A stretch of 46,574 nt of DNA from an uncultured Intrasporangiaceae bacterium (GCA_964412865.1 CAYPQR010000001.1:1-46574); one strand, 5' to 3'; shown: positions 17,405-37,411, counted from the stretch's first letter. The notes: generated by a model from the sequence alone, not told the origin. Made by a program: numbers and translations.

Positions 17405-18262
17405 ATGAACACGCGACGACCGCCTCGGGCGCTGAGGGCCGCCAGTCCCCCGCTTCCCACGTCGGACGGTCTGGCGCGCCTGCTGTCCGACGCGCTCGAC
17501 CAGGCCACATCATCACCGGTGCTGGGCCCTGTCCGCGCGACGACCGTCGTCGGAGAGACCGTCGACCGACTGCTGACCGCCGTCGCGATGGGTGAGTTCC
17601 TGCCCGGCGAGGCCATGCCGTCCGAGCGGAAGCTGACCGAGATGCTGGGCATCAGCCGGGTGGCGGTCCGGGAGGCCCTGAGCCAGCTGGATGCCGTCGG
17701 CGTCACCGAGGCGAGACGCGGCCGGGGTGGTGGCCGCTTCGTGCGCACCGGGTGGGTCGAATCATCGGCGGCCGCCGTGCGGCACACCCTCCTGCCGCGC
17801 TGGCAGGAGATCGAGCAACTCCTGGATCTGCGCGCCCTGATCGAGGAACTGGTCGGCCGCACCGCCGCCGAGCGAATCGATGCGGCGGGCCTGGAGACGG
17901 TGCAGGACGCTCTCGAGCAATATGACCGGTCCGAGACCCTACGCGACGAGCATGTCGCCGACGCGAGGTTTCACGGCGCCATCCTCGAGTCCACGGGCAA
18001 CGACCAGCTGGTCGCCCTGAGCCGGCAACTGCTCGCGCGCACGAGCATCGCCTTCCCCTGTGAGCCCTGGGGCAATGAGAGTATGCCCGCCGACGACCCC
18101 GAGTTCCGGGACGCGCGCACCGACCACCGGCAGATCTACCTGGCCCTGAGCGCACGCGACGTCGAACTGACCGGCCACCTGTGCCGCATCCACTTCGGCA
18201 TCACTGCCGCGATGTTCCGTGCGGTCATGAGCCAGGCCCAGTCGGGATCGGACCACGACTGA
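17405..18262 (+). CDS. GntR/FadR-family transcriptional regulator
   Basis: PGEAMPSERKLTEMLGISRVAVREAL HTH and FCD domain (DARFH...GNDQL); RBS AAGGAG upstream of ATG 17405. Confidence 0.92.
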   Translation: MNTRRPPRALRAASPPLPTSDGLARLLSDALDQATSSPVLGPVRATTVVGETVDRLLTAVAMGEFLPGEAMPSERKLTEMLGISRVAVREALSQLDAVGVTEARRGRGGGRFVRTGWVESSAAAVRHTLLPRWQEIEQLLDLRALIEELVGRTAAERIDAAGLETVQDALEQYDRSETLRDEHVADARFHGAILESTGNDQLVALSRQLLARTSIAFPCEPWGNESMPADDPEFRDARTDHRQIYLALSARDVELTGHLCRIHFGITAAMFRAVMSQAQSGSDHD

Positions 18263-18290
18263 GCATCGCCCGCGGTGACGTGTCGGCGCG

Positions 18291-18680
18291 TCAACTGCCT
18301 CGGTGCGTGCTGATGCGCGGAGGTGTGCGCAGGGTGTTGGTGACCCAGCAGAGCCGCCGGGCCGGCTCGAGGAGGCGCTCGACGAGTTCAGGGTCCGCAT
18401 CCGCGCGAACGGCGATGTCGATCGCGCAGATGCGCGGCCCGTCGTAGTCGGCGGAGACGTCCACCGCAAGGCCGGGCAGTACGGCGTTCCGCTTGCCGGC
18501 AACGAACGCCATGGCGATGGTGAAGCACGATGCGACGGAGGCGAGCAACACCTCGGTGGGCAGCGGTGCGGGTGAACCGTCGGCGAGAGCCGCGTCGTGG
18601 CCGATGTCCCAGGACGATCGGCCGACGGCGACGGTGGCACTCTGGCCGCCGGTCCAGGTCGCCGAGACGTGCCGACTCAC
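18291..18680 (-). CDS. OsmC/Ohr-family protein
   Basis: P.PTEVLLASVASCF and ARRLCWVTNTL, with both conserved Cys; GTGA coupling to the DUF1116 stop. Confidence 0.85.
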   Translation of the reverse strand: MSRHVSATWTGGQSATVAVGRSSWDIGHDAALADGSPAPLPTEVLLASVASCFTIAMAFVAGKRNAVLPGLAVDVSADYDGPRICAIDIAVRADADPELVERLLEPARRLCWVTNTLRTPPRISTHRGS

Positions 18681-20101
18681 GTGTGTCCCCCCGGCGCCGG
18701 CCGGTCCTCCGCCGCCAGCGCAAGCACGGCGTCCCGGAAGCACGCGATGGGCGCGGTCGCCACCCCTGCGCCGATCTGACCGACACCCGAGTCGGCGTGC
18801 AGGATGCCGGTCGTGATTCGCGGCGGTAGGCCGAGTTCGACGACATAGCGGGCATCGACACCGAGCGGAGTTCCCTGGGAGTCCCACGTGGGCAGTGTGA
18901 AGCGGGTGGAGTGGGTCACGCAGGTCTGGGCCATGTCCTCGGTGACAACCCGCGCATCCGACATGTGACCTCCGAGAAATCCTGCAACAGCGGGAGATCC
19001 GGCCGCGGCCGCACCACCGAGGCCGACGAGTTCCAGCACGGCGCTGTCGCCGATGTCCGGCGCACTCGTGTCCGGTCCGTAGTCCGGGTAGTACATCGCG
19101 TCCAGGATGGGCGGGGCGTCGGCGAGGAAGAGACGGTCGTTGCCCGCGAGCCGCAGCCCGAACGTCGTGCCGTTGCGACACATCGTCGTCACCACACTGG
19201 ACCCTTCGACCCGTTCGGCCCACATCGTCAGCGACCTGGCCGCGGCCATCGCGAGGTTGAGGAAGAAGAGATGGTTGCCCGAGAGGAACCTCGCGAGCTC
19301 GACGCGTCCGGCGTCCGGGAGTGCGGCAAGGTGCGGCAGCAGGTTGCGGACCATGAGGTTCGTCGTGCCCTGGGTGCGCATGTGCACGTCGTCGCCCATC
19401 TGCACGCCTTGCGCGGCGAGCGCCATCACGTCGATCGGACCGGCGGCGCCGACCGCCTCGCGCAGCATCGGTCCAGCCACCTCCCGCAGGAACCGCAGTC
19501 GTGCGACCGCGCCGTCGGTGTCACGGCCGAACCAGGCCGTATCGCCGGGGCCCTGGTTGATCGGCGAGAACGCCCGGGTGCCCCCGGCCTCGTTGTCCAC
19601 GACGAAGACCGGTGTGGCCGGACCCATCGCCGTCGCCATCGGCACGACAACTCCGAAGTCACCGGCAGGGCGCAGCGCGATGGCGCCGTCCTCGATCAGC
19701 CGGCCGGCCTCGGCGACGTCGTCCGCCCATCCCTCGGCGACGGCGGCGGCACGCATCGAGCGACGCAGCGGATCGCACACCTCCGGCCACTCGATGGGCG
19801 GCCCGCAATGCAACAGCGTGCGCGGCGGCAGACCCTCGATGGCCTCCCCCGCCGGTGCGATGCCCACGAGTGTCGGCACGCCCTCGTCGAGACGACGCAC
19901 CACCTCGGCGTTCGCGCGGTCGATGTCCCCCGCCCGTGGACCGTGCAGACGCGTCAGAGCCGTCACCACCTGTGGGTCCCCGCCACCGGGGATCCGCCAG
20001 TCGAGTTGCTGCACCGGCCGGTCCTGTTGCGAGATCGCGTCGGCAAACAACGGTAGCCCGATGTTCACCACGGAGAGGGTTTCGGGAATGTCGATACTCA
20101 T
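18677..20101 (-). CDS. DUF1116 protein (YahG/YlbE/AllG-like carbamoyltransferase subunit)
   Basis: LLHCGPPI.W, QGVQMGDDVHMR, FFLNLAMAA, PDIGDSA..E..GLGG and ITTGILH...GQIGAG motifs. Confidence 0.9.
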   Translation of the reverse strand: MSIDIPETLSVVNIGLPLFADAISQQDRPVQQLDWRIPGGGDPQVVTALTRLHGPRAGDIDRANAEVVRRLDEGVPTLVGIAPAGEAIEGLPPRTLLHCGPPIEWPEVCDPLRRSMRAAAVAEGWADDVAEAGRLIEDGAIALRPAGDFGVVVPMATAMGPATPVFVVDNEAGGTRAFSPINQGPGDTAWFGRDTDGAVARLRFLREVAGPMLREAVGAAGPIDVMALAAQGVQMGDDVHMRTQGTTNLMVRNLLPHLAALPDAGRVELARFLSGNHLFFLNLAMAAARSLTMWAERVEGSSVVTTMCRNGTTFGLRLAGNDRLFLADAPPILDAMYYPDYGPDTSAPDIGDSAVLELVGLGGAAAAGSPAVAGFLGGHMSDARVVTEDMAQTCVTHSTRFTLPTWDSQGTPLGVDARYVVELGLPPRITTGILHADSGVGQIGAGVATAPIACFRDAVLALAAEDRPAPGGHT

Positions 20102-21609
20102 CGCTCCTCCTCGAATGTTCCGGCGACCGTGCGAGCCTCGGCGAGCAGCGCCGCAGTAGCCTCGCCCAGGTCGGCCCGCCGAGCCTCTGCACGGTTCGCG
20201 AGGTCCCGTGACATCTCCCGGCAGTGCTCGACCATCTCGGTGACCGCCGACGGGGCGGCCCCGCCGAGCGCGGCACGTGTCGTCACGATGTTCATCGGAT
20301 CAAGCACCTCGGTCAGGTCCAATCCGGCCAGGTTCCAGTCGCGTCCGGTGTCACGGCGTGCCGTGTCGTCGAGCATCCGCCCGGTGATGTCCTTCCCGGG
20401 GATCCCCCGCCGGCTCGCCTCTCTCACGGTGTTGCCGACGACGGTGTATGCAGTGCGGTAGTCGACTCCGCAGTGTTGGGTGATGTATTCGGTGAGGTCG
20501 GTCGCCTGCGTGTAGCCGGCATCCAGGCTCTCCCGCATACGTTCCGCGTTCACCGTCAGGGTCGCGACGACACCGGCCATGAGGCGTGTCACGCGGATCG
20601 AGAGGTCGAGGGCCCGTGGCACCTCGCCATACGCGAAGATCAGGTTGTCGCTGCGCGCCGACGGGCTCTTGGCGACGGCCAGGAATCCGCTCAGCCGGCC
20701 GATCAGGATGCCGGATGCGCCGCGCACGATCGATAGCGAATAGGGGTTGCGCTTCTGCGGCATGAGGATGCTGGAGCGGGTGTAGCCGTCGTCGAGGTCG
20801 ACGAAGTCGAATTCGCTGCTGGACCAGATCTCGAGGTCCTCGGCCAGCTTGCTCTGGGTGGAGGCGAGGCTCGCGGCCGTGGCCAGCACGTGGATCAGAC
20901 CGTCGACCTGCCACATGGCGTCTCGGGTGTGCTCGATGACCCCGGTGAAACCGAGGGCGCGGGCGATGTGGCTGCGGTCCGCGAGCAGGCGTGTGCCATT
21001 GACGCATCCGGCACCGCCGGGGCTGTGGTTGACCCAGTCGAAACCGCTCAGCAGCCGGTCACCGTCGCGCATGGCCGGATACGCGAAGTTCAAGATGTAG
21101 TGGCCGAAGGTCGACGGCTGAGCCTGTTGCAGGTAGGTCTGGTCGGGCATCAGGGTCGCCACGTGCGCAGCGGCCTGATCGGCGCATGCCGCCACGAACC
21201 TACTCGTGTGTCCCACGAGTTCCAGCAGCTGGTTGCGGACGAACAGCCGCAGCGCGATCCTCGCGGCCTCGCGCCGGGGGCGGCCTGCATGCAGCCAACC
21301 GGCCACATCCCCCAGGTGCGCGACGAAGTACCTCTCACGAGAGTTGTAGGGTTCGCCGAACTCGGGTTCGTAGGGGAACTCGTCAGCGCTCAGCCGATGC
21401 ACGTCGAGCAGCAGACCCAGGATCTGACGGGCGGCCTCTGCAGGAATGATCCGCCGACGCAGCAGATCGAGCACGTGCGCCATGTCGGCGAGGTTCAGAC
21501 CCTCGTGCAGGAATGGTGCGTCATCGTTCTCGAGCGCGAATCCGGAGTCGACGAGTTCGGGTGCAGGGCCGCTCGTCGGCGGACCGCTGCGGCGCGGCTT
21601 GCGGCTCAT
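20098..21609 (-). CDS. Argininosuccinate-lyase-like aspartase/fumarase-superfamily enzyme; candidate CoM-pathway (Xcb) lyase
   Basis: LHAGRPR, MPDQTYLQQAQP (His replaced by Tyr relative to ArgH), SSILMPQKRNP signature, ATDLTEY. Confidence 0.85.
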   Translation of the reverse strand: MSRKPRRSGPPTSGPAPELVDSGFALENDDAPFLHEGLNLADMAHVLDLLRRRIIPAEAARQILGLLLDVHRLSADEFPYEPEFGEPYNSRERYFVAHLGDVAGWLHAGRPRREAARIALRLFVRNQLLELVGHTSRFVAACADQAAAHVATLMPDQTYLQQAQPSTFGHYILNFAYPAMRDGDRLLSGFDWVNHSPGGAGCVNGTRLLADRSHIARALGFTGVIEHTRDAMWQVDGLIHVLATAASLASTQSKLAEDLEIWSSSEFDFVDLDDGYTRSSILMPQKRNPYSLSIVRGASGILIGRLSGFLAVAKSPSARSDNLIFAYGEVPRALDLSIRVTRLMAGVVATLTVNAERMRESLDAGYTQATDLTEYITQHCGVDYRTAYTVVGNTVREASRRGIPGKDITGRMLDDTARRDTGRDWNLAGLDLTEVLDPMNIVTTRAALGGAAPSAVTEMVEHCREMSRDLANRAEARRADLGEATAALLAEARTVAGTFEEER

Positions 21610-21611: not shown

Positions 21612-22562
21612 TCACTCCTCGAGGCCTTCCAGGGCGGACGCGATGCCACCCGTGCACCAGAACACGTAGGGGCCCGGGTCGCTCGCGACGAGCGCACGCA
21701 GCACGGTCATCGCCTTCGCACCGTATGTGTCGTCCAACAGCAACCCGCCCGCGTGGAATGCGACGCGCGCGCTCTCGCGATCCGCGGCGCCGGCGATGCC
21801 GAATCCCGGGCCGACCGCGTCACGCACCTCGGCGAGGTCGGGCTCCGGTCCACCGAGCACACTTGCGCACTCATGGGCGAGTCTCCCCACGCGGGAACGG
21901 ATTTCGTCCGCGGGTCTGCTCACCGACGCGCCGACGATCCGCATCGAGAGCCCGAACCGTGAGCAGCCCGCCAGCAGGCCTGCTTGGCTGCCACCCGAGC
22001 CGGTGGGTAGCACCACCGTGCCCGTGGCGATGCCGGCTTGTGCGCACTGCTTTCCCAACTCCTCCGCCGCCAGGGCGAACCCGACGCAGCCCACCGCAGT
22101 CGCCCCGCCTCGCGGCACGGCATAGGGTCGCCGCCCGGCGGCTCGCAGTCGGGCGGCATGCGCGGCGACGAGGCCGTCCAAGTCGCCGCGGGTCGCGCCG
22201 GGCTCGAAGTGCAGCCTCGCACCCGCTGCCAACGACAGTCTCATGGCCGTGGGCGGGTCATCGGGTGCCTCGCCACTGTGCACGATCTCGCACGCGAGAC
22301 CCGCCAGGCGTGCCGCGATCGCCGCAGCCGCGCAGAAGTTCGAGTGTGGCGAGCCCGCGGCGACGAGCACGGTGGCGCGGCGGGCGAGGGCGTCGCCGAG
22401 CAGGTATTCCAGCGACCTCGCCTTGTTGCCGGCCACTGCGAGCCCGGTGAGGTCATCGCGCTTCAGCCAGATCGGTCCGCCGCCGAAGGCGCGTTCCAGC
22501 CCGTGAGCACGATGCAGGGGCGTCGGAGTCACGGCCAGCGGAAAGCGTTCTGGGAGCATCAT
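21612..22562 (-). CDS. PLP-dependent D-cysteine desulfhydrase / ACC deaminase homolog (XcbE-like)
   Basis: PTPLH, WLKRDDLTG..AGNKAR.LEYL (PLP Lys), SNFC, GSGGSQAGL and LDDTYGAKA motifs. Confidence 0.9.
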   Translation of the reverse strand: MMLPERFPLAVTPTPLHRAHGLERAFGGGPIWLKRDDLTGLAVAGNKARSLEYLLGDALARRATVLVAAGSPHSNFCAAAAIAARLAGLACEIVHSGEAPDDPPTAMRLSLAAGARLHFEPGATRGDLDGLVAAHAARLRAAGRRPYAVPRGGATAVGCVGFALAAEELGKQCAQAGIATGTVVLPTGSGGSQAGLLAGCSRFGLSMRIVGASVSRPADEIRSRVGRLAHECASVLGGPEPDLAEVRDAVGPGFGIAGAADRESARVAFHAGGLLLDDTYGAKAMTVLRALVASDPGPYVFWCTGGIASALEGLEE

Positions 22563-23920
22563 GGGCACCACCGTTCCGGCTCGACCGCACGCGCCGCTCC
22601 GGCCGCCGCGACGACGCGGTCGACCATCTCGGGCGCGACGCCGGCCGGGGGCCCGCCGACCCACGCGTCGGCTTCGGACTCGGTGGCGATTCCGGACTCG
22701 ACCACCTGTGCGGCGAGGTCGCCGCCCTCGTCGGAGGCCGAGAGGTCCTGCAGCATCCGCTGCGCCCGATGCTTGCCCTCACGCGCCGCGAGACCGGCGA
22801 GCAGCCGCTCGGACGTGATCTGCGCACGCATACGCTCGACACCCGCAGCCATCGCCTCGACATCCACGCGGAGGCCCTTGGCAAGACGCAACGCGGTGCG
22901 CAGGGAGACCGCGGTCAGCTCGCACACCTCCGGCAGCGCGATCCACTCGGCCTTCCACGCGCGCCCATCTCGCTCGTGCGCACCCGCCATACCCTCGACG
23001 AGCACTGCGGCGCTGGCACGGGCCAGCCGCGCCAGGGTGTCAAGGTGCTCGCTGGCCTCCGGATTGTGCTTGTGCGGCATGGTGATCGAACCGACGGCGT
23101 CCGGGTCCATCGGCTCGTGCAGCTCTCCGATCTCGGGGCGGCAGAGTTCGTAGACCTCGTCTCCGAACCGAGCGAGCGTGCTGCAGACCATCGCGAGGAC
23201 GGTGCCGAACTCGGCGATCCGGTCGCGGGCCGTGAGCCATGAGATGTCCGGTTCACCGAGGCCGAGTTCGATGCAGAATTCGTGACGCAACCTGAGGGCG
23301 TCCGCGCCGAAGAAGCCGAGGGTCCCGACGGCGCCGCCGAGCTGGCCGACCAGCAGACGCCGGCGAGCCTCACGGAGCCGCTGCACGTGACGGCGCACCT
23401 CGTCCGCCCAGCCGGCCGCCTTGAATCCGAAGGTGATCGGCGCTCCGGGCTGACCGTGCGTGCGACCCAGCATGACCGTGTCGCGGTGCCGCTGCGCGAG
23501 CTGCAGGAAGGCCTCCTCGAGGGCCCTCAGGTCTCGCCAGACGATCGAACCGACGTCGCGAATGACGAGGGCGAACCAGGTGTCCGTCAGATCCTGGACC
23601 GTGGTGCCGTAATACACGTATTCACGGGCCGGTTCGGGCAGCTGCCGCTGCAGTGCGTGGATGAGTCCGAGCGTCGAGTGCGAGGTCGACCGGGTCTGCT
23701 CGGCAATCAGATCGAGATCCAGGCTCGAGGCATCCATCCGCGCGCAGATCGTCTCTGCGGCGTCCGACGGGATGATGCCGACCCGCGCCTGTGCTCTCGC
23801 GAGCGCAGCAAGGATTGCGACCCAACTCGCCAGACGGGCTCGCTCACCGAGGATGCCCTCGAGCTCGGGTGTCCCCCAAAGATGGCCGTATTGGCGCGAG
23901 TCGCTCAGACGGGTTCCCAT
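22559..23920 (-). CDS. Adenylosuccinate-lyase-like aspartase/fumarase-superfamily enzyme (XcbD-like)
   Basis: YYGTTVQDLTDT, GRTHGQPG.PITFG, GGAVGT, GSITMPHKHNP and HERDG motifs. Confidence 0.88.
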   Translation of the reverse strand: MGTRLSDSRQYGHLWGTPELEGILGERARLASWVAILAALARAQARVGIIPSDAAETICARMDASSLDLDLIAEQTRSTSHSTLGLIHALQRQLPEPAREYVYYGTTVQDLTDTWFALVIRDVGSIVWRDLRALEEAFLQLAQRHRDTVMLGRTHGQPGAPITFGFKAAGWADEVRRHVQRLREARRRLLVGQLGGAVGTLGFFGADALRLRHEFCIELGLGEPDISWLTARDRIAEFGTVLAMVCSTLARFGDEVYELCRPEIGELHEPMDPDAVGSITMPHKHNPEASEHLDTLARLARASAAVLVEGMAGAHERDGRAWKAEWIALPEVCELTAVSLRTALRLAKGLRVDVEAMAAGVERMRAQITSERLLAGLAAREGKHRAQRMLQDLSASDEGGDLAAQVVESGIATESEADAWVGGPPAGVAPEMVDRVVAAAGAARAVEPERWCP

Positions 23921-25610: not shown

Positions 25611-25650
25611 GTCCACTTTCCGACAGCAACACGCGCAGATGGGAGCGACC

Positions 25651-28347: not shown

Positions 28348-28380
28348 GCTCAGGCCTTCCATACATACACTCCACGACAT

Positions 28381-28580: not shown

Positions 28581-28589
28581 TTGGGCAAC

Positions 28590-29573: not shown

Positions 29574-31108
29574 CCGAGGCCATCAGGCTGTTCTCGGACA
29601 CCTACGTGGACTCCGTGGTCGCCCTGCGAGGCATGCGAGCGATGCGCGAAACGGCGGGCGTGCGATGGGCGACGGCCGTCGCCGCGACGCCCGCGAATCT
29701 GGCCGCCCTGCGCGAGGACGGCATCGCCGACGACCGGCTCGAGAACGCGACCGCGAACGACTTCTGCCTCGCCGTGCGCGCCGACGACGGCGACGCCGCG
29801 GACAACGCCCTGGAGGCCGGGCGACAGGCGGTCTTCGCGGCACGCCCGCAAGAGGCCGACGCCACGCGGCGAGCACCTCGAACGGTCCGGGACGCAGTCG
29901 CCGCGGCACCGGATGCCAACGTCGCGATCGTTTCGGTGCCCGGCGACTACGCGGCGCTGGCGGCCTACCAGGCGCTGGACGCCGGGATGCATGTGCTGCT
30001 GTTCAGCGACAACGTGCCGCTCGCCGACGAGGTCGCGCTGAAGACGTATGCGCGAGCCCGTGGCCTGCTCGTCATGGGCCCGGGTGCCGGCACGGCGATG
30101 CTCGCCGGCACCGGTCTGGGCTTCGCCAACAGCGTCCGCAAGGGCCCGGTCGGCGTCGTGGCCGCCGCCGGCACCGGGGCCCAGGAGGCCATGACACTGC
30201 TCCATCGCTGGGGCCTCGGCGTCAGCCAGGTGATCGGCGTCGGCGGACGCGACCTGAGCACGGACGTCGACGGGCGCATGGCCCGATCCGGAGTCGAATA
30301 CCTGCGCGACGATCCCGACACCGATGTGATCCTGCTGGTCTCCAAGCCCCCGGCTCGGGAGGTCGCCCAGAAGGTGATCGAGGCTGCGGGCGAGACACCC
30401 ATGGTGGCGGCCCTCATCGGACTCGACGAACACGGTCTCACCGCACCCGAAACGGTGACGCTTACCGGCACCCTGGAGTCCGGGGTGGCGGCGACGCTGA
30501 GGACCCTCGGACGGACACCGCCCGACACGACGCTCCTGGCCGGACCCTCACTCGCCGACGCATCGGCGAGGATCGGCCCGGGACGCAAGACCGTCCGCGG
30601 GCTCTTCTCCGGAGGCACCCTCTGCTACGAGTCGCTGGTCATTCTGAGTCGACGGCTCGGGGAAGTCCGTTCGAACACCCCCATCAACCCCGACTGGGGG
30701 CTACCCGCACCACCCGGCAGTCACCAGTGCCTCGATCTGGGCGAAGAGGAATACACCCGCGGGCGGCCGCATCCGATGATCGACCCGGAGGCGCGGATCG
30801 AGGTGCTGCGCGAGCACGCGGCCGACGACGATGTCGCCGCGATCATCCTCGACGTCGTGCTGGGATACGGCTCCAACGCCGATCCTGCCGGTGCACTCGC
30901 CCCCGTCTGCGCCGACATCATGTCGAGCGGCGGACCACAGATCGTGACCTACGTCCTCGGCACCGATCGCGACCCACAGCGACGTCGCGCGCAACGTGAC
31001 ACACTCGTGGATGCCGGCTGTATCGTCACCGAAACGGCGGCACGCGCATCGCTTGCCGCGGCGGCCCTTGCGACCGGTGACCTGTCGTTGATCGAGAGTT
31101 CGCTATGA
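29570..31108 (+). CDS. FdrA/YahF-family protein (acyl-CoA-synthetase-like; AllF-like subunit)
   Basis: YVDSV, SVPGDYA, LFSDNV, LVMGPG.GT, IGVGGRDLS, GLFSGGTL, DLG..EYTRGRPHPMIDP and LDVVLGYG motifs. Confidence 0.93.
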   Translation: MTEAIRLFSDTYVDSVVALRGMRAMRETAGVRWATAVAATPANLAALREDGIADDRLENATANDFCLAVRADDGDAADNALEAGRQAVFAARPQEADATRRAPRTVRDAVAAAPDANVAIVSVPGDYAALAAYQALDAGMHVLLFSDNVPLADEVALKTYARARGLLVMGPGAGTAMLAGTGLGFANSVRKGPVGVVAAAGTGAQEAMTLLHRWGLGVSQVIGVGGRDLSTDVDGRMARSGVEYLRDDPDTDVILLVSKPPAREVAQKVIEAAGETPMVAALIGLDEHGLTAPETVTLTGTLESGVAATLRTLGRTPPDTTLLAGPSLADASARIGPGRKTVRGLFSGGTLCYESLVILSRRLGEVRSNTPINPDWGLPAPPGSHQCLDLGEEEYTRGRPHPMIDPEARIEVLREHAADDDVAAIILDVVLGYGSNADPAGALAPVCADIMSSGGPQIVTYVLGTDRDPQRRRAQRDTLVDAGCIVTETAARASLAAAALATGDLSLIESSL

Positions 31109-32280
31109 ACATGCCGCGCGTCGCCCTGGTCAGCTACTCCACCCGCCCGCGCGGCGGCATGGTGCACACCCTCTCGCTCGCCGACGCGCTCGTCGCACGA
31201 GAGGCACCCGTGCGGGTCGTCGCGCTCGACCGGCAACCGAGTATCGGCTTCTTCCGCCCAGTTTCGGCACCGTCGACGCTCATCCCCGGGCCGACACCGT
31301 TACCGACGCTGGAGGAACGCGTCTTCGCGTCCGTCGACGCGCTCGAGGACGGATTGCGCGACGTGGCCCGCGAAGTCGACATCCTGCACGCCCAGGACTG
31401 CATCTCCGCCCGCGCCGCGGCACGCGTGCGAGACGCCGGCGCCCCCGTCAAGGTCGTGCGCACCGTGCACCACGTCGACGACTTCACGACGCAGGCACTC
31501 GTCGACTGCCAGCGCCAGGCCATCCTCGAACCGGACGAGTTGATCGTCGTGAGCGATGACTGGCGACGCCGCCTGTCCGACGAGTACGGCGTCCGGGCGA
31601 CAGTCATCCACAACGGAGTCGATGTGGAGCGCTTCGGCCCGATCGCACCGAAGGCACGCGATCGCCTGCGGGAACAGGCCGGCGTCTCGAAACGCTTCGT
31701 GTTCCTCGCCGTGGGCGGCATCGAGCCGCGCAAGGGCACGATCGGGCTCTTCCGAGCTCTGGCGAAGGTGCACGAGCATCCTTTGCAGCCCGTGCTCGTC
31801 ATCATCGGCGGCCATTCGTTCCAGGACTACACCGCATACCGCGACAGGGCCTTGGAGCTGCTGGATGAACTGGGGCTCACCCTCGGAGTCGACGTGATCC
31901 AGGCCGGCACGGTGAGTGACGAAACCCTGCACCAGTGGTACCGGTCCGCAGACGCGCTGGCCTTTCCCTCTCTCAAGGAAGGCTGGGGACTCGCCGTGCT
32001 CGAGGCGCTCAGCGCCGAGCTGCCGGCGGTCACCAGCGACATCCCGGTGCTGCACGAATACCTCACAGACGGAGTCGACGCCGTGCTGACCGAGGCAGAC
32101 GACCCCGGCGACCTGGCTCGCGGTATGCGTGCCGTCATGGACGACCCGCGGTTGCGCTCACAGCTCGCGAGAGGCGGGACGGCCCTCGCGCGGCGCTTCA
32201 CCTGGTCGCGAACCGCCGCGGAGCACGAGCGGCTGTATCAAGCGGTGGTCGGCACCCCGCACAGCCGCGCAAACGCCTGA
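31105..32280 (+). CDS. GT4 glycosyltransferase, MSMEG_0565 family
   Basis: YSTRPRGGMVHTL.LADAL, HAQDCIS, RTVHHVDDF...LVDCQ..AI, GGIEPRK and FPSLKEGWGL motifs. Confidence 0.93.
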   Translation: MNMPRVALVSYSTRPRGGMVHTLSLADALVAREAPVRVVALDRQPSIGFFRPVSAPSTLIPGPTPLPTLEERVFASVDALEDGLRDVAREVDILHAQDCISARAAARVRDAGAPVKVVRTVHHVDDFTTQALVDCQRQAILEPDELIVVSDDWRRRLSDEYGVRATVIHNGVDVERFGPIAPKARDRLREQAGVSKRFVFLAVGGIEPRKGTIGLFRALAKVHEHPLQPVLVIIGGHSFQDYTAYRDRALELLDELGLTLGVDVIQAGTVSDETLHQWYRSADALAFPSLKEGWGLAVLEALSAELPAVTSDIPVLHEYLTDGVDAVLTEADDPGDLARGMRAVMDDPRLRSQLARGGTALARRFTWSRTAAEHERLYQAVVGTPHSRANA

Positions 32281-32303: not shown

Positions 32304-33638
32304 ATGGCAAGACGAATCGTGATCATCGGAGGTAGCGCCGCCGGGATGGGAGCCGCCGGTGCCGCCCAACAGGTGGACCCCGACGCGCACATCATCGTCT
32401 ACACGGAACTCGCGGACGTCGCCTACAGCCCGTGCGGCATCCCCTACGTGCACGGCAAGGAGATCGACTCGTTCGACCGCCTGATCCTGCAGGGGAAGCA
32501 GTTCTATGCGGACCGCGGATTCGAGATCCACTACGAGACCGTCGTGAGCGCGATCGACACCAAGAAGCGCACGATCGAGGTGCCCGGCCAGGGATCGGTC
32601 TCCTACGACCAGCTGGTGATCGCCACCGGATTCAAGTACGAGCAGCCGAACGTGCCCGGCGCCGACCTCGGCAACCTCTACTATGTGCGCGACATCCGCA
32701 ACGCGCAGAAGTGGGACGTCATCCTCGACTCGGTCCACCAGGCGGTGATCGCCGAGGCCCAGCCGATCGGCGTCGAGATGGCAACCGCACTCGCGCATCG
32801 CGGCATCGAGACGCACCTGGTCGACCCGCATCCCTGGCCGATGGCGGAGATCACCGACCCGGACATCATGGAACCGGTCGAGGAATCGTGGCAGGAACTG
32901 GGTGTGCACCTGCACCTGAACACCACCATCGACGCATTCCTCGGCACCGAACGGGTGCAGGCGGTCCGCACGTCGGACGGCGAAATCCCTGTCGACATGG
33001 TCGTCGTCGGCACCAAGAAGCTGCCGAACAACGATCTGGCGGCCGCGGCGGGCGTCAAACGCGGGTCGACCGGCGGGCTGATCGTCGACGAGCACATGCG
33101 CACGTCGGTGCCCGGAGTCTTCGCCGCGGGAGACTGCGTCGAGGTGCCGCAGGGCACGACCGGCGTGCCCGTGCAGGGATTGTCCGGAAGCCACGCATAT
33201 GCGCAGGGGAAGATCGCCGGCAGCGGTGCCGCCGGCACGCTGCGCAGCTATGCACCCGTGCACGTGCCATGGGGTCTGGTCGCCGGCAAGTGGATGATCG
33301 GCGGGGTCTCGTTCGGTGAGACGCTCGCCGGGGCGCTGGGCATTCCCTACGTCAAGGGCGTCGCCGAGGGAATCTCACGAGCGCGCTACTACCCGGGCTT
33401 CAAGAAAATCCGGGTCAAGCTGCTGGCAGAGCCCGGCACACTCAAGCTGATCGGTGCTCAGCTCGTCGGCGGCGAAGGGGTCAAGGAGCGTTGCGACTTC
33501 CTCGCCATGGCAGCGCGCAAGGGCCTGACACTGCACGATATCGCGTGGATGGAGAACGTCTATTCACCTGCCATGGGTGCTCTTTCGGAGCCCATGGCAC
33601 TTGCGGCACAGAACGGACTGGCGGCGGTGGCGTCATGA
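32304..33638 (+). CDS. FAD-dependent CoA-disulfide reductase / NADH oxidase-like flavoprotein
   Basis: IIGGSAAG FAD motif, YSPCGIPY single redox Cys, LVIATG, VFAAGD, SRARYYPG and YSP motifs. The NAD(P)H-binding motif is degenerate. Confidence 0.88.
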   Translation: MARRIVIIGGSAAGMGAAGAAQQVDPDAHIIVYTELADVAYSPCGIPYVHGKEIDSFDRLILQGKQFYADRGFEIHYETVVSAIDTKKRTIEVPGQGSVSYDQLVIATGFKYEQPNVPGADLGNLYYVRDIRNAQKWDVILDSVHQAVIAEAQPIGVEMATALAHRGIETHLVDPHPWPMAEITDPDIMEPVEESWQELGVHLHLNTTIDAFLGTERVQAVRTSDGEIPVDMVVVGTKKLPNNDLAAAAGVKRGSTGGLIVDEHMRTSVPGVFAAGDCVEVPQGTTGVPVQGLSGSHAYAQGKIAGSGAAGTLRSYAPVHVPWGLVAGKWMIGGVSFGETLAGALGIPYVKGVAEGISRARYYPGFKKIRVKLLAEPGTLKLIGAQLVGGEGVKERCDFLAMAARKGLTLHDIAWMENVYSPAMGALSEPMALAAQNGLAAVAS

Positions 33639-33880
33639 ACCGGCTCTTCTGGTGGGTGCGCACCAATTCGCAGAAGTACCTCCTGGAAGCCACCCAGGCG
33701 GACCTCGCACGTCAGCATGGCCGCACGGGCCCCGTGGGCCGCAAGACCCCCGAAGTGGTCTTCTGGAAATACGTGTTCGTGCCGCTGTACCGCCGCCTGC
33801 CGTGGCAGGTGAAGCACCGGGTGATCACGGCCATGCCGGGCAGCCACAGGAAGGACTGGTCCTCGTCCCGGGAATCCTGA
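33635..33880 (+). CDS. Small hypothetical protein (81 aa, basic, Trp-rich)
   Basis: ATGA overlap with the reductase stop; followed by a strong terminator. Confidence 0.72.
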   Translation: MNRLFWWVRTNSQKYLLEATQADLARQHGRTGPVGRKTPEVVFWKYVFVPLYRRLPWQVKHRVITAMPGSHRKDWSSSRES

Positions 33881-33943: not shown

Positions 33944-34429
33944 TTACATCGTCCAGGTGTTCAGAGTCAGTGCGTGCTCCTTCCACGCGGTGATCGCAGC
34001 ATCCAGCACGTCCTTCGGGTTGATCGGCTTGACGCCCTCCATCATGTCGATCTCACGCATGCCGTAGAGCGCGGCGGCCGAGAACCTGCATGCGTATGCG
34101 TGCCCGCCCTCATCCATGAACCGCCGCAGCAGATTGTTGTAGTTCATGTTGCCCGGGAACCCTTCGTCACCGACCTTCGGGAATCCGCGGGTCGCGGCCG
34201 CGGCGAGTGACCCCGGCCCGAACATGACGAAGTGTGTCTCGAACCCCTTCCGCAGGATTCGGGTGGCGGTCAGCAAGTTGACCAGAGAGGCAGAACTCTC
34301 GAACGGCACGCAGTGGTAGAAGACGAAGGCCTTCTGCCCGGGTTCCGCTTGATGATCAGGAAAGACCTTGTCCTCGTAATCGACGATGGCGTCTCCTGCG
34401 CTCACCCGTTCACCGACGAAATCCACCAT
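33944..34429 (-). CDS. MSMEG_0572 / Sll0783 / NitB family DsrE-like nitrogen-starvation protein
   Basis: GD..VDYEDKVFPD..A.PG.KA, LVNLL.A.R..RKGFE, RGFPKVG.EGFPG and YACRF..AALYG motifs; RBS AAGGAG. Confidence 0.92.
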   Translation of the reverse strand: MVDFVGERVSAGDAIVDYEDKVFPDHQAEPGQKAFVFYHCVPFESSASLVNLLTATRILRKGFETHFVMFGPGSLAAAATRGFPKVGDEGFPGNMNYNNLLRRFMDEGGHAYACRFSAAALYGMREIDMMEGVKPINPKDVLDAAITAWKEHALTLNTWTM

Positions 34430-34484: not shown

Positions 34485-35312
34485 TCAGTCGTACAGAGCA
34501 GCGAAGTTGTCTCGCAGGACGAGCTGGGCCAGCTCGCCGTCTCCGGTGGCGGCCTTCATCCGAGCCAGTTCACCGGCCTGGTCGCCCCACGGCTCGTCGC
34601 TCGCATACAACAGGTGGTCCTGCCCGATGCCACGCTTGTCGATCTCCTTGACGAGCCATCGCGGCGCAAAACCGACCGCCCAGCTGGTGTCCGTGTAAAC
34701 CTGCTTGCCCGCCTCGATCCAGTCGAAGAAGCGGTGACCGATGAGCTTGATGTGGGCGCTGACTCCCCCGCCCATGTGCACCAGGTGGATCTTGACGTCG
34801 TCGGCATAGCGGTCCACCAGCGTGCCGACGACATCGATGTCGGAATTGCCGCCCGGGGACGTGTGCACGTGGACGACGAGGTCATGCTCACGCGCCGCCG
34901 CAAAGATCCTGTCGAGCTGGACGATGCAGTCGGGATCGTCGGCCCGCCCGCCCAGCAGGAAGCTGGTCTTGAGCACCTTCACCCCGGACTCACCGGCGAG
35001 GGCCAGGGCCTTGTCGTTCAGTTCCGCGTCCTGGGGCCGTGGAGAGGTCCAGATCCCACACCTGATCCGGTCGTCGGCCGCGGCGGCCTCCAGCGCGAGC
35101 TCGTTGAGAGAGAACGACACCTTCGGATCCGGTACGCCGTAATTCGGTATCACCAGAGCACGTTCGGTCCCTTCTCGGTCCAGGTCGGCGATGAGTTCGG
35201 CGACCGTGGCACGCGCAGAGATGTCGGGATGCACCGGCGGCCCGCCATAGAACGGATACTCGGGCATGATCCCAATGTGGCGATGAGCATCGTTGACAAG
35301 CGAACTGGACAT
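34485..35312 (-). CDS. Metal-dependent amidohydrolase (amidohydro_2-like TIM barrel)
   Basis: DAHRH (HxH), VHVHT, LVHMGG, YTDTS and ASDEPW metal-ligand motifs; true start ATG 35312 inside the 645-aa ORF. Confidence 0.88.
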   Translation of the reverse strand: MSSSLVNDAHRHIGIMPEYPFYGGPPVHPDISARATVAELIADLDREGTERALVIPNYGVPDPKVSFSLNELALEAAAADDRIRCGIWTSPRPQDAELNDKALALAGESGVKVLKTSFLLGGRADDPDCIVQLDRIFAAAREHDLVVHVHTSPGGNSDIDVVGTLVDRYADDVKIHLVHMGGGVSAHIKLIGHRFFDWIEAGKQVYTDTSWAVGFAPRWLVKEIDKRGIGQDHLLYASDEPWGDQAGELARMKAATGDGELAQLVLRDNFAALYD

Positions 35313-35330: not shown

Positions 35331-35425
35331 GAAACGTATCGGATAGTAGAGGTCGCGTCTTCCTTGCCATACACGACACCCACGTCTTGTATCACCGGAA
35401 CTCCTAGCATCGTCAGCTATAGTTG

Positions 35426-35782
35426 ATGGCCGTGAGCGAGTCCGGAACGCCCCCTGAATCCGCTGAGGACAGCGCAATTGCTGCCTCGACAGACGAGCGC
35501 GAACGCGCCGCCGCGGAGCGCTGGCGGGCCGCGGAGGGCCGGCTGTATCCGCTGATCGTCGCCGACCCCGACCTGTATACGCTGGCGGTGGAACTCGTCG
35601 TCGAAGTGCGGGAGTTGCTGCGGGTCGAGTGTGCGTCGGTCGACGCGCTGATCGGTGCCGCGGCCACCAACGTGCTGTCACGCTGCGGCACGACGGCGAA
35701 GGTCCGGGCCGAAGGCTTCGACCCTGTCGTCGCCTTCGATGCGGCCCGGGCGGCACGACTACGCGAACTCCGACAGTCCTGA
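35426..35782 (+). CDS. Hypothetical protein (~117 aa)
   Basis: Helical protein-like ORF (RWRAAEGRLYPLIVADPDLY) preceded by TATAGT at 35418-35423; the start may be GTG 35432. Confidence 0.72.
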   Translation: MAVSESGTPPESAEDSAIAASTDERERAAAERWRAAEGRLYPLIVADPDLYTLAVELVVEVRELLRVECASVDALIGAAATNVLSRCGTTAKVRAEGFDPVVAFDAARAARLRELRQS

Positions 35783-35792: not shown

Positions 35793-36482
35793 GTGAAAAA
35801 CGCGATGACGGCGGACCGTTCCGCCCGAGATATTCCCCGCCGCTCCACCAAGGCAGCAGTGCCTGCGAGGGCCGCCCATTCCCATGGCGGCTCGTCCCAT
35901 GCGGCCCGCGTCGACGAACACGTCACCGGGATCGTCAATTCGATCGGCGCCAAGGTGAAGCACTTGCGCAAGACGCAGCGCCTGTCGCTGCAACAGCTCG
36001 CCGCCAAGGCGGATGTCTCGGCGGCAGCCATACACAAGGTCGAGCGCAACGACATGGTGCCGACGGTCACGACTCTGCTGAAGATCGCGACGGCGCTCGA
36101 CTGCCCCGTCGGGTATTTCATCGGCGACGACCGGCTGGCCGATCCCGTCGCATTCATCCCTGCGGGGCAGCGCGAAGAAGTGTTCACGCCGCATGCCGGT
36201 CTGCACCTGGCCGGCGTCTCCGGGCCCTACTCGCCGTTCCACAGCGCGGCCGCAATGGCAACCGTGGACCCGGGCGCGGACAGCGGGAGCAAGCCGCTCT
36301 CCCATCCCGGCGAAGAACTGGTCTTCATCGTCAGCGGTGGCCTGACCTTCGAGATCGCGGGCACGGTGTATCGACTGCGGCGGGGCGACTCGCTGCACTT
36401 CCTCGGCGACCAGCCCCACCACTGGGCCAATGAGCGCAAGACGGCGACGCGGGCGCTCTGGTATGTGCTGCGCGACTCATAG
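35793..36482 (+). CDS. XRE-family HTH regulator with C-terminal cupin domain
   Basis: IGAKVKHLRK..RLSLQQLA.KADVS..AI.KVER...PT HTH and HPGEELVF....G...GDSLHF..DQPH cupin. Confidence 0.92.
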   Translation: MKNAMTADRSARDIPRRSTKAAVPARAAHSHGGSSHAARVDEHVTGIVNSIGAKVKHLRKTQRLSLQQLAAKADVSAAAIHKVERNDMVPTVTTLLKIATALDCPVGYFIGDDRLADPVAFIPAGQREEVFTPHAGLHLAGVSGPYSPFHSAAAMATVDPGADSGSKPLSHPGEELVFIVSGGLTFEIAGTVYRLRRGDSLHFLGDQPHHWANERKTATRALWYVLRDS

Positions 36483-36565
36483 ACCTTGTCGAGGGTCGGG
36501 TATCCCATCTCGCGGCGCTGCCGGTCGGCAGCACCGTCGTCCCAGGACAGACGGATAGCTGACCC

Positions 36566-37411
36566 GTGGCGGCCTTGACGGGTGTGACGGCGCAGGGAGC
36601 ACGATGGTCGTGCCCGGTCTCGGCCGTGAGCCGGCCGGCGTTGCGCCTGCTGTCAGGTCGCACCGGGCTGAGCGTCCACTCGGTCTTCAGTGCGGCGGTG
36701 AATCTGCGGGTGGGCGATCGACTCGTCACCTGCACGTCCGGGGGCGATCGAGCGCCTCACGGTGTGGCCGTCAACGCGTCAGGGCTGAGCCAACTACAGC
36801 GGTCGGTGAGTGCGGAGCGGGCCGTCCTGGGATGGGTTGCCGAGGCTGAGCCGACGCAGCGCGCTGTCGTCTATGACCCGTCGGTGCCCAGGGTGGATGC
36901 TGCTGCGGCACGCACCGGAGCCCACCGACTGCTCGAGCATCTCGAGCGGGCTCGCCCATCGACCGGGTTCGGCGATGACTGGGCACGACTGGCCAGAGAT
37001 CCGGCACTCTCGGCGATGGTCCACTCCGCGAGTCGTGGCGTGATCGGAGAGGCTGTCCTCGCCTGCCTGGGAAGGGGGCCCGGCCTGACCCCGAGTGGTG
37101 ATGACGTGCTGGTCGGTGCCGTCTGCGCGCTGCGGTCGATCGCTGAAGTGGACGCGAAGCGTCTCGCCCGGCTCGACGAGCTGCTCGAGGGACACGGCCA
37201 TGACCTCACGACCGACGTGTCCGTCGAGTACCTGCGCTATGCCTGCCGTGGTATGGCGAGCGGCGCGGTGGTAGAACTGCTGACGGCCCTCGGTGGACCT
37301 GAGGTCACCGTCATGATCCACGCGGTCGATCGACTACGCCGCTTCGGCCACACCTCCGGCATGGACATGTTGCTGGGCGTCATCATCGCCCTGACGGCCG
37401 ACGCCACCTGA
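36566..37411 (+). CDS. DUF2877 protein (YahE/YlbF/AllH-like)
   Basis: VHSVFS.AVNL, LG.GPGLTPSGDD.LVG, TTDVS and GHTSG.D.L.G motifs. Confidence 0.9.
   Translation: MAALTGVTAQGARWSCPVSAVSRPALRLLSGRTGLSVHSVFSAAVNLRVGDRLVTCTSGGDRAPHGVAVNASGLSQLQRSVSAERAVLGWVAEAEPTQRAVVYDPSVPRVDAAAARTGAHRLLEHLERARPSTGFGDDWARLARDPALSAMVHSASRGVIGEAVLACLGRGPGLTPSGDDVLVGAVCALRSIAEVDAKRLARLDELLEGHGHDLTTDVSVEYLRYACRGMASGAVVELLTALGGPEVTVMIHAVDRLRRFGHTSGMDMLLGVIIALTADAT

Follow-up and report, generated by a model that had tools for sequence, protein, structure and literature searches.

Coenzyme M genes are joined with Nit1C genes in one conserved 20-gene cluster

The DNA analysed here, referred to as the window, is a stretch of 46,574 nucleotides from an uncultured Intrasporangiaceae bacterium. 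Between positions 17405 and 37411 it carries 21 ORFs, 20 of which are members of one cluster: xcbA-E, for coenzyme M (CoM); five Nit1C genes; fdrA, allG and allH; and genes for a carbamate kinase, a CoA-disulfide-reductase-like flavoprotein, an OsmC-like protein, an amidohydrolase and a regulator. A first-pass annotation had placed about 19 genes there, in several mixed operons. All the genes that it named are present where it put them, and the mixed operons were confirmed; the count was revised. Two unannotated ORFs, of 81 aa at 33635 and 118 aa at 35426, were added, and the GntR gene at 17405 proved to be a mere neighbour, with a match in 0/80 related loci, which also rules it out as cluster regulator. 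The other candidates for conserved genes (c0, c1, c3-c5 and d0-d16) matched no family and turned out to be mere opposite-strand shadows of true genes. The locus was compared with 50 clusters that are its closest relatives by XcbA, and hence kin rather than independent cases; 16 genes were each found in 44 to 50 of them.

All five xcb genes lie in one operon on the minus strand, in the order comA-xcbA-xcbD-xcbE-xcbC, followed by allG and osmC, with overlapping junctions. They encode ComA/XcbB phosphosulfolactate synthase (24816..25589; TIGR03849/PF02679, 255 bits for Pfam ComA; 48/50 clusters), an XcbA family [2Fe-2S] reductase (23905..24831; NF052538, 318 bits, cut-off 150; 42% identical to that of Xanthobacter Py2), an XcbD-like 3-sulfopropionylcysteine synthase (22559..23920; NF052536, 578 bits, cut-off 600; 43% to Py2; 50/50), an XcbE-like PLP enzyme with the PLP lysine kept (21612..22562; NF052537, 237 bits, cut-off 450; 40% to Py2; 47/50) and an XcbC-like phosphosulfolactate phosphate-lyase (20098..21609; NF052535, 436 bits, cut-off 575; 38% to Py2 XcbC; 49/50). 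The comA transcript is likely leaderless. Residues E107, E136, K140, R240 and R244 of ComA, K47 of XcbE, H155, S278, K284 and N286 of XcbD and T158, Y159, S280, K286 and N288 of XcbC are identical in all four alkene clusters used for comparison. XcbA keeps C199, C250 and C265, but two of the five family-conserved cysteines are replaced in the present lineage: positions 228 and 266 are Cys in 50/52 aligned sequences and in all four alkene proteins, not here. As XcbA lacks these two cysteines, and as it alone exceeds its NCBIfam cut-off (XcbB-E being below theirs), the product may not be CoM.

In Xanthobacter autotrophicus Py2, XcbB-C-D-E-A make CoM from PEP, sulfite and cysteine (PMC9457059); all five genes are common to the two loci, at 35-43% identity. 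Identity rises to 38-54% with the actinobacterial proteins from the alkene clusters of Nocardioides JS614 and Mycolicibacterium NBB4 (PMC8727900), whose gene order is the same. The lyase, PLP and ComA residues and a nearby CoA-disulfide-reductase-like gene are also shared with alkene clusters. The present locus differs from them in that neither an epoxyalkane:CoM transferase nor an alkene monooxygenase is linked, in the appended allG and osmC, in the two XcbA cysteines, in a flavoprotein that lacks the NAD(P)H motif, and in xcb proteins that form a separate clade.

The coupling of DUF1116 and OsmC genes to the end of the comA operon, described in the first-pass annotation, was verified: allG (18677..20101, minus; Pfam AllG, 218 bits; 50/50) overlaps the xcbC stop codon, and the gene of the OsmC-like thiol peroxidase (18291..18680, minus; Pfam OsmC; both cysteines kept; 47/50) overlaps that of allG. 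Likewise, 4-nt overlaps join the genes of carbamate kinase (28590..29573, plus; NF009007, 295 bits, above the cut-off of 266; 44/50), FdrA/AllF (29570..31108, plus; NF004760, 409 bits, cut-off 433; 47/50) and the MSMEG_0565-family GT4 glycosyltransferase (31105..32280, plus; TIGR04047, 361 bits, above cut-off; 48/50). FdrA matches PDB 3dmy and succinyl-CoA synthetase alpha chains. AllH/DUF2877 (36566..37411, plus; Pfam AllH, 97 bits) is an accessory member, found in 20/50 clusters with a profile built from the loci. The window thus holds AllF, AllG, AllH and carbamate kinase, all four homologous to the oxamate carbamoyltransferase AllFGH and the carbamate kinase AllK of E. coli. The E. coli enzyme acts on an N-carbamoyl compound without a thiol, and the carbamate kinase family yields ATP, NH3 and CO2 (PMC11326118). 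Unlike in E. coli, the genes are spread over three operons and allantoin genes are not conserved nearby; the substrate is likely not oxalurate.

Four further genes belong to Nit1C. The NitF-like AIR-synthase (AIRS)-fold ATPase (25651..26625, plus; 47/50) has TIGR04049 as best match, below cut-off (246 bits against 321); ThiL and HypE are its nearest relatives in the PDB, and an alignment of 49 AIRS proteins showed the C-terminal cysteine to be absent. Its gene is separated from the divergent comA by 61 nt (25590-25650), as annotated. Next come a NitE-like GNAT acetyltransferase (26636..27193, minus; TIGR04045, above cut-off; 46/50) and the radical SAM enzyme NitD (27190..28347, minus; TIGR04043, 390 bits, above cut-off), with a Cx8Cx2C and a C-terminal CxxCxxC motif, whose cysteines are invariant in 49 sequences. 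NitD was found in 44/50 clusters, and elsewhere in the genome for 5/5 tested of the other six; its predicted structure resembles the LipA, BioB and HydE folds, a placement at superfamily level only. NitB/MSMEG_0572 (33944..34429, minus; TIGR04044, 208 bits, above cut-off; 48/50) is DsrE-like, with an invariant cysteine in ACRF. A sequence search of solved structures returned nothing for NitB, the radical SAM enzyme or the amidohydrolase. The module had been called nitrilase-less, and so it is: NitC, the Nit6803-family nitrilase, is absent from the window and 0/50 genomes have a match above the TIGR04048 cut-off (weaker nitrilases occur elsewhere in 16/50). The description has to be extended, since NitG and NitH are also missing (0/50 clusters; no TIGR04046 match above cut-off in the own genome, which is 72% complete).

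NitB, NitD, NitE, NitF and the glycosyltransferase are shared with the Nit1C/gpr clusters (nitBCDEFGH, PMC1199592 and PMC7815647; MSMEG_0565-0572, PMC6039565). In place of NitC, NitG, NitH and the carbon-nitrogen hydrolase, the present cluster has an amidohydrolase or cobalt nitrile hydratase, the flavoprotein and the 81-aa protein, FdrA/AllG/carbamate kinase and xcbA-E; it is also divided among several operons, has an XRE-cupin regulator, and carries a palindrome that a scan of gpr-type loci did not reveal. These papers state that Nit1C is required for growth on cyanide, that its nitrilase is poor on free cyanide and has unsaturated nitriles as best laboratory substrates (PMC7815647), that the M. 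smegmatis gpr cluster raises NADPH and confers peroxide resistance (PMC6039565), and that related clusters are induced >500-fold by nitrogen starvation (PMC7815647, PMC6039565).

The CoA-disulfide-reductase-like flavoprotein (32304..33638, plus; 48/50; best PDB matches 6ruz and 3cgb) keeps its FAD motif and its redox cysteine (Cys44, in 47/48). The NAD(P)H-binding GxGxxG is lost, both glycines being replaced (proline in 47/48), whereas the three alkene-cluster homologues keep it. Of 7997 protein clusters that were scored against it, 2483 reached E ≤ 1e-150. Overlapping its stop codon is the gene of the 81-aa protein (33635..33880, plus; 48/50), which has no Pfam or NCBIfam match and conserved W-R, F..P and PGSH..W; in a protein atlas it fell in unnamed clusters only, at a recognition below the useful level. 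The 118-aa ORF (35426..35782, plus) matches no known family and is a short form of the roughly 215-aa family present in most clusters (43/50, with one query of the longer form).

The remaining enzyme is a TIM-barrel metalloenzyme of the Amidohydro_2 family (34485..35312, minus; Pfam PF04909, also the protein atlas assignment), with invariant D8, H10, H12, K115, H148, H150, H179 and D239. The folds nearest to its model (pLDDT 83.8) are 13-19% identical, which places it at superfamily level only. It is found in 31/50 clusters, and it and nitrile hydratase (NHase) exclude each other almost throughout: 29 clusters have the amidohydrolase only, 17 the NHase only, two have both and two neither, the last two being cut by contig ends. 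The exchange took four changes on a 40-tip xcb tree. Both genes often neighbour nitB, at a distance of up to 1 kb and in the same orientation (8/13 and 11/13 measurable cases for amidohydrolase and NHase, respectively). The alpha subunit of the cluster NHases has a CTLCSC motif, which we take to be cobalt-type; these NHases score above the nitrile hydratase cut-off (306 bits) and below that of thiocyanate hydrolase (199 of 291). The own genome (72% complete) has no TIGR01323 (nitrile hydratase) match. Because the amidohydrolase trades places with a cobalt nitrile hydratase, it likely hydrates a C≡N group, as a predicted functional stand-in that is not itself a nitrile hydratase. This reading replaces the earlier one, an amidohydrolase opening an N-rich substrate that sequence could not define: with the swap, the substrate class can be narrowed.

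The slot has other occupants. A Methylocystis cluster has a Nit6803 nitrilase there and no carbamate kinase within 20 kb. The same amidohydrolase is present in CoM-free gpr-type operons (10/80 metagenome loci), together with NitG, NitH and/or carbon-nitrogen hydrolases whose best match, sub-threshold, is N-carbamoylputrescine amidase; these amidase-type hydrolases may be a second way of removing the group handled by FdrA/AllG and carbamate kinase. Three gpr-type operons (G245, G387 and G398) have neither amidohydrolase nor NHase within the stretch examined, which counts against the cyano-carrier scheme proposed below.

One palindrome lies upstream of all three modules. It is found at 25590-25605 in the comA/nitF gap (10.6 bits), with a second conserved box just beyond; at 28497..28512 between the radical SAM and carbamate kinase genes (17.0 bits, the fourth-best site in the genome); and twice in the amidohydrolase/118-aa ORF gap (35336..35427), at 35336 (8.8 bits) and 35412 (11.6 bits). 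Among related comA gaps, 39/48 scored at least 10 bits, against at most 4 for shuffles. The XRE-cupin regulator (35793..36482, plus; HTH_3 and Cupin_2; 45/50) is a candidate binder. Motifs obtained from 200-nt windows upstream of comA and of the XRE gene were discarded, being coding sequence of the divergent gene. A GlnR direct-repeat pattern had no match in three promoter gaps, and a sigma-70 and terminator scan (0 and 0) was uninformative here.

According to record titles, members of the Actinomycetes, Acidimicrobiia and Dormiibacterota also have the gene set, with its order shuffled, and a Methylocystis plasmid carries it reshuffled as well, which suggests more than chance. In an even sample of 400 genomes of Actinomycetota, 6/8 xcbA carriers had nitB within 13 kb. 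The first-pass proposal that the three modules form a unit is thereby supported; it was to fall if they never co-occurred or were not co-regulated, and both co-occurrence and a common upstream palindrome were seen. Cultured hosts include Pseudonocardia, Nonomuraea, Streptomyces, Nocardioides and Methylocystis. The 50 clusters yielded no further conserved gene, allantoin genes included, and no conserved amidase, transporter, exporter or metal-enzyme target. Three clusters (G238, G420 and G475) have no xcbA match and retain the flavoprotein, the 81-aa ORF or its site, OsmC, FdrA, AllG, carbamate kinase, the amidohydrolase and Nit genes; an aminotransferase, a luciferase-like monooxygenase and a PLP decarboxylase occupy the xcb place, and comA is elsewhere in each genome. 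CoM is therefore not obligatory.

We propose, with a probability of about 0.38, that the cluster makes CoM, whose sulfur carries a cyano group that is hydrated to a carbamoyl and leaves as carbamoyl phosphate, to give ATP, ammonia and CO2. By homology, XcbB-C-D-E-A would make CoM from PEP, sulfite and cysteine. The flavoprotein, the 81-aa protein, OsmC and NitB might form a thiol relay that keeps CoM oxidised, with an electrophilic sulfur, so that cyanide or a cyanide-releasing compound could attack it to form NC-S-CoM. This is the weakest step, and one in which the radical SAM, GNAT, AIRS and glycosyltransferase proteins may assist. The amidohydrolase, or elsewhere the cobalt nitrile hydratase, would convert NC-S-CoM to H2N-CO-S-CoM, and FdrA/AllG, with or without AllH, would swap thioester for phosphate like succinyl-CoA synthetase, releasing carbamoyl phosphate and HS-CoM. 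Carbamate kinase would then yield ATP, NH3 and CO2, and the XRE-cupin protein may control all operons through the palindrome. Recovery of the carbamoyl group as ATP had already been suggested, and carbamoyl phosphate remains the best reading of FdrA/AllG with carbamate kinase: since no amidase or transporter is conserved, the amide must exit that way, and the substrate likely diffuses in. A Nit1C nitrilase poor on free cyanide, in a cluster needed on cyanide, fits a carrier-bound substrate, and the raised NADPH in M. smegmatis fits an oxidative route. Several facts count against the cyano-carrier scheme: three clusters do without xcbA, the XcbA of this lineage lacks two conserved cysteines, carbamate kinase is not nearby in 6/50 clusters, AllH, which the E. 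coli enzyme needs, is in only 20/50, FdrA and AllG persist in Methylocystis beside a nitrilase that would render both superfluous, the flavoprotein has no NAD(P)H motif, and the scheme offers no obvious place for four Nit enzymes whose folds look biosynthetic.

In the best of the alternatives, which we nevertheless consider unlikely, the cluster is biosynthetic and its chemistry runs backwards. CoM would receive a carbamoyl group from carbamate kinase and FdrA/AllG, and the AIRS-fold enzyme would spend ATP on dehydrating that group, which gives a cyano donor. A new sulfur-containing cofactor or metabolite would then be built by the radical SAM, GNAT and glycosyltransferase proteins. The precedent is cyano-ligand synthesis by HypF/HypE, where carbamoyl phosphate is used and the carbamoyl is dehydrated on a protein cysteine, HypE carrying a C-terminal cysteine. 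As there, S-carbamoyl and S-cyano states could be interconverted with the help of carbamoyl phosphate, a thiol carrier and an AIRS-fold ATPase; unlike there, no HypF was found, hydrogenase is not conserved, and the AIRS protein, without its C-terminal cysteine, would need a free thiol. The affinities of the AIRS protein to ThiL and HypE and of the radical SAM model to LipA, BioB and HydE, the presence of larB, larC and larE in 7-8/50 clusters and the persistence of FdrA and AllG beside the Methylocystis nitrilase all speak for it. But the hydratase points the opposite way, as nitrile hydratase, its stand-in or a nitrilase in every uncut cluster would undo the dehydration; AIRS also occurs in CoM-free operons without carbamate kinase, neither an exporter nor a metal-enzyme target is conserved, and the need on cyanide and the induction by nitrogen starvation of related clusters do not suit a biosynthetic role.

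Slightly less probable still is a substrate of another kind, either a common organic nitrile or an N-cyano compound (a cyanamide, for example). Its hydration would give an amide or urea for direct cleavage by FdrA/AllG, and CoM would serve only as reductant or as the nucleophile that attacks a carbon skeleton, unsaturated or radical-activated. The bit scores of the cluster NHases, the thiol-free E. coli AllFGH and the preference of NitC for unsaturated nitriles agree with this. Against it, no transporter, amidase or carbon-skeleton pathway is conserved, conversion of a carbon-linked amide to carbamoyl phosphate would chemically need C-C cleavage, and an N-cyano substrate gives no reason for five xcb genes to share the palindrome. 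We find it improbable that CoM is a low-molecular-weight redox buffer, recycled and used against peroxide by the flavoprotein and OsmC beside a Nit module that does not need it. The frequency of both proteins, the peroxide resistance given by the gpr cluster and the three clusters without xcbA are in its favour; the loss of the NAD(P)H motif is not, the hydratase swap is left unexplained, and allG fused into the xcb operon and nitB placed after the flavoprotein show that the modules are interleaved. Finally, an accidental mosaic around xcb genes serving alkene/epoxide metabolism, as in Xanthobacter and Nocardioides, is largely refuted and was rejected: despite the shared gene order and some soluble di-iron monooxygenase in 28/50 genomes, EtnE and EtnC are in 0/50 clusters within 28 kb, no di-iron monooxygenase on the same contig comes closer than about 95 kb, identity to EtnE peaks at 35.5% in 41 loci of 10 genomes whereas known transferases share 45-77%, the own genome (72% complete) has no EtnE-level match, the xcb proteins form a branch separate from those of the four alkene clusters, and the four alkene stretches examined have no Nit or All gene (a blank PF02332 search of the own genome says little, control genomes being equally without match).

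To conclude, the function of Nit1C has been an open question since 2005, its nitrilase being a poor cyanide enzyme, and the literature found ties bacterial CoM to alkene/epoxide metabolism only, as against 6/8 xcbA carriers beside Nit1C. Our searches returned no description of coenzyme M with Nit1C, nothing joining phosphosulfolactate synthase, nitrile hydratase and radical SAM, nothing on thiocyanate with nitrile hydratase and thiocarbamate, and nothing on coenzyme M with cyanide, nitrilase and carbamoyl phosphate. Three swaps (a nitrilase, a nitrile hydratase or the amidohydrolase; FdrA/AllG with carbamate kinase or else amidase-type hydrolases; NitG/NitH or flavoprotein with the 81-aa protein) reduce the Nit1C problem to three straightforward assays of enzymes on defined small molecules. 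If the cyano-carrier scheme is true, this cluster would be the commonest setting of CoM genes in Actinomycetota and would give the cofactor a new job. A broader form of it, a little more tentative, is that CoM, known as a carrier of methyl and epoxyalkyl groups, has a third role and carries cyano/carbamoyl groups while cyanide is oxidised to ammonia and CO2 with a yield of ATP. The route would include a thiol flavoprotein independent of NAD(P)H and a new hydratase of amidohydrolase fold, for nitriles or thiocyanate, which is a candidate second and unrelated kind of nitrile hydratase. The swaps would reveal the logic of all Nit1C clusters: C≡N is activated on a heteroatom and hydrated, and the resulting carbamoyl group is removed by hydrolysis or phosphorolysis.

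The first-pass annotation had listed the genes of this region, and its inventory was borne out by Pfam and NCBIfam scans of the 55 ORFs of the window, together with inspection of the sequence. The CoM genes lie in a minus-strand operon, comA-xcbA-xcbD-xcbE-xcbC-allG-osmC (25589 to 18291), in which the junctions are overlaps or a 2-nt gap. At 61 nt from it, on the plus strand, lies the AIRS-fold gene (25651-26625), which is convergent with radical SAM-GNAT. The carbamate kinase, fdrA and glycosyltransferase genes overlap by 4 nt at each junction; downstream of them lie a CoA-disulfide-reductase-like flavoprotein gene and an 81-aa ORF. Then come amidohydrolase-nitB (minus strand; amidohydrolase at 34485-35312, nitB at 33944-34429) and, on the plus strand, a 118-aa ORF, an XRE-cupin regulator gene and allH. 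A peptide/sugar ABC import operon (5086-14992; with ROK kinase, CutC, ROK regulator and MlrC-like M81 metallopeptidase) is separate from the cluster. The window also carries a 966-aa ORF (867-3767) whose match to NADP glutamate dehydrogenase begins only at residue 524 and whose first half, overlapping DUF488 and another opposite-strand ORF, is probably non-coding; a subtilase-family gene (38801-41533); a short glycosyltransferase C-terminal piece (45275-45847), with a weak match, far below cut-off, to rifamycin/macrolide glycosyltransferases; and a ribbon-helix-helix ORF (46103-46489).

The cluster is real and conserved. An XcbA alignment search of genome_contigs gave 256 relatives, the best 80 of which (a non-random sample, nearest to the query) were used; among them the closest named relative was Leekyejoonella antrihumi (locus L010, 78%). 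Fifty of the 80 loci, i.e. 46 of at least 20 kb plus four, were taken further, with up to 28 kb covered per side of xcbA. The 50 clusters contained ComA (48), XcbA (50), XcbD (50), XcbE (47) and XcbC (49); OsmC (47), flavoprotein (48) and 81-aa ORF (48); NitB (48), AIRS (47), GNAT (46), radical SAM (44) and glycosyltransferase (48); AllG (50), FdrA (47) and carbamate kinase (44); XRE (45) and GntR (0) regulators; and, with a profile built from the loci, AllH (20). Six genomes had no nearby radical SAM gene, and the five tested all had one elsewhere. Clustering of the remaining ORFs of the 50 clusters revealed no further conserved gene, amidase and transporter included. A full-length XcbA match was present in only one of 60 relatives, and the distribution is therefore patchy.

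Against the selection bias of the nearest-relative set, 400 genomes were drawn evenly from the phylum. XcbA was found in eight and NitB in 14; nitB lay 7-13 kb from xcbA in six of the eight, and the three of these six that were examined were all of the amidohydrolase type. In the seventh, xcb, osmC and allG share a contig of 9 kb; in the eighth, xcbA is on one of 3.4 kb. XcbA matches were also found on two Methylocystis iwaonis plasmids. The one examined has the gene set in a changed order, with a Nit6803 nitrilase; carbamate kinase and AllH were not found in the 41 kb examined. Pseudonocardia spinosispora and Nocardioides guangzhouensis are, like M. iwaonis, carriers that have been cultured.

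A few side features were seen. Genes larB, larC and larE (nickel-pincer cofactor) occur in 7-8 of the 50 clusters (L054, L059, L060, L068, L079 and extensions of genomes G072 and G081), with no conserved larA-like gene among the clustered ORFs. A family of about 115 aa with Cys-x3-Cys and HHDRLL motifs, absent from the window and without Pfam or NCBIfam match, adjoins osmC or comA in 20 of the 50 (e.g. L049:8832-9191). The Methylocystis cluster (L009) has a Pnap_2097 (LnmK-like) gene inside and two DJ-1/PfpI genes near (L009:13652-14578, 28018-29920); DJ-1/PfpI genes are also present in L049, L061 and L066. In G408 (L304:8459-10100), comA and xcbA each align as two pieces, which suggests frameshifts or sequencing errors.

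The cluster is likely co-regulated. One palindrome, of consensus gTtnACtATaGTnaAc, emerged when the regions ahead of the flavoprotein, carbamate kinase and amidohydrolase genes were sampled for motifs; its seed was chosen by eye and its matrix trained on 84 of the 88 carbamate kinase and flavoprotein upstream regions. Scores of at least 10 bits were reached ahead of comA in 39 of 48 clusters, versus 0-4 for operon-internal genes. With locally shuffled sequence the count averaged 1.15 of 48 and never exceeded 4, and among the 126 divergent gaps in the own genome (assembly 72% complete) four had a site. Counts for the XRE, AIRS and 118-aa families refer to gaps common to other genes. Sites in the window are at 25590, 28497, 35336 and 35412; in Methylocystis they are next to fdrA and ahead of comA. 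In most clusters the comA site runs up to the start codon and takes in what is likely the -10 hexamer of a leaderless transcript. With its period of 10 bases the repeat differs from the GlnR box and gives no indication of nitrogen control. In seven gpr-type stretches (the CoM-free Nit1C operon type) and five xcbA-less ones, there were two hits in total (11.5-11.9 bits), none in an identifiable cluster promoter.

With 35-43% identity to their Xanthobacter Py2 counterparts, the five Xcb proteins retain the residues common to four alkene clusters but branch apart from these. Two cysteines found in 50 of 52 sequences are missing from XcbA, here and in its closest relative. The redox cysteine is still there in the flavoprotein, but not the NAD(P)H glycine motif, which its three alkene-cluster homologues retain. 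No epoxyalkane:CoM transferase was found in 41 loci from 10 genomes (best 35.5% identity; none in the own genome), a check that leaves out 19 of 49 matches, nearly all in G109. FdrA aligns with E. coli FdrA and succinyl-CoA synthetase alpha. The radical SAM model (pLDDT 91.2) matched LipA, BioB, RlmN and HydE about equally in a fold search. A C-terminal cysteine is absent from the AIRS protein; HypF/HypE carry out cyano-ligand synthesis. The AIRS protein also matches TIGR03267, 'methanogenesis marker 2', a family from archaea that use CoM (169 bits against a cut-off of 365), and the XcbA profile has a weak match in Methanosarcina acetivorans. NitB in the window carries an additional cysteine close to its first conserved motif; at 93-97% identity to the NitB of four other genomes, it represents a distinct subtype.

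XcbA-E are defined in PMC9457059, AllFGH in PMC11326118 and Nit1C in PMC1199592, while the gpr cluster is named, with GlnR control and an effect on NADPH, in PMC6039565, and alkene and epoxide CoM clusters are treated in PMC8727900 and PMC11507031. The terms FdrA, carbamate and radical SAM do not occur in the accessible text of PMC8727900, nor do 'nitril' or 'iwaonis' in that of PMC11507031. In contrast to Nit1C, the cluster is missing NitC, NitG and NitH. The literature searched (few subscription papers, no supplements) contained no description of a joint CoM and Nit1C-type setting, a mention in a table being possible.

What the cluster might do is approached here from the place taken either by the amidohydrolase or by nitrile hydratase (NHase), whose motif we take to be of the cobalt type. 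Of the 50 genomes, 31 have the amidohydrolase, in single copy and always within about 18 kb of xcbA; NHase, as alpha and beta genes with their accessory genes, is present in 19 of the 50 clusters. Counted among kin and not independent genomes, 29 clusters had the amidohydrolase only, 17 NHase only, two both and two neither, the last two running into a contig edge. This label changed four times on a tree with 40 tips built from four Xcb proteins (shuffles: mean 11.7, minimum 7); the swap therefore occurred more than once. When nitB was on the same stored stretch, 8 of 13 amidohydrolase genes shared its strand and were at most 1 kb away, as did 11 of 13 genes for NHase beta. No nitrilase exceeded the NitC cut-off in the 50 genomes. 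The amidohydrolase, a predicted TIM barrel only 13-19% identical to LigI, IDCase and ACMSD in fold comparison, keeps a complete metal site in 30 sequences.

A metagenome scan returned at least 537 amidohydrolase relatives. Among the 80 listed, 55 had a cluster gene alongside (30 of 36 for loci of at least 8 kb), and 10 were accompanied, in operons of the gpr type, by NitG, NitH and/or one or two carbon-nitrogen hydrolases; the stored DNA of these 10 had no xcb, flavoprotein or All genes. One or two such hydrolases occur in L274, L280, L281, L283, L286, L288 and L289. Their best match was N-carbamoylputrescine amidase (57-130 bits, far below the cut-off of 410). Of two inspected, one keeps the Glu-Lys-Cys catalytic triad, and the other has Asp in place of both Glu and Cys and is possibly an inactive subunit. 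We infer that the slot enzyme hydrates a C≡N group and that the product leaves by hydrolysis in the gpr type, and by phosphorolysis and carbamate kinase in the CoM type. Two such exits point to a product X-CO-NH2, X being a heteroatom, for which the simplest choice is the thiol that this cluster makes.

Several observations weigh against a CoM-based route. The non-xcb part of the cluster is kept, without an XcbA match, in three genomes of a single family (G475 L294:8562-15370, G238 L298:6149-15471, G420 L296:18064-L297:1671), where carbamate kinase and fdrA are separated by an aminotransferase, a luciferase-like monooxygenase and a PLP decarboxylase. The decarboxylase is LysA-fold, a small ORF of no known family adjoins the 81-aa homologue, and in two of the three genomes allG is followed by a methyltransferase. 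The extra genes may supply another small carrier (sulfur or amine), or CoM may be dispensable. No hydratase was present in the fetched stretch of three gpr-type operons, Methylocystis retains FdrA and AllG beside a nitrilase, and the radical SAM, GNAT, AIRS and glycosyltransferase proteins are given no step. In the light of these four points, the route in which CoM carries the cyano and then the carbamoyl group, on to carbamoyl phosphate and ATP, NH3 and CO2, is tentative (probability about 0.38). That the cluster runs the reverse way and builds a new sulfur cofactor or metabolite is less likely, if far from negligible. To conclude, the cluster is an undescribed setting of CoM genes, where CoM may serve as such a carrier.
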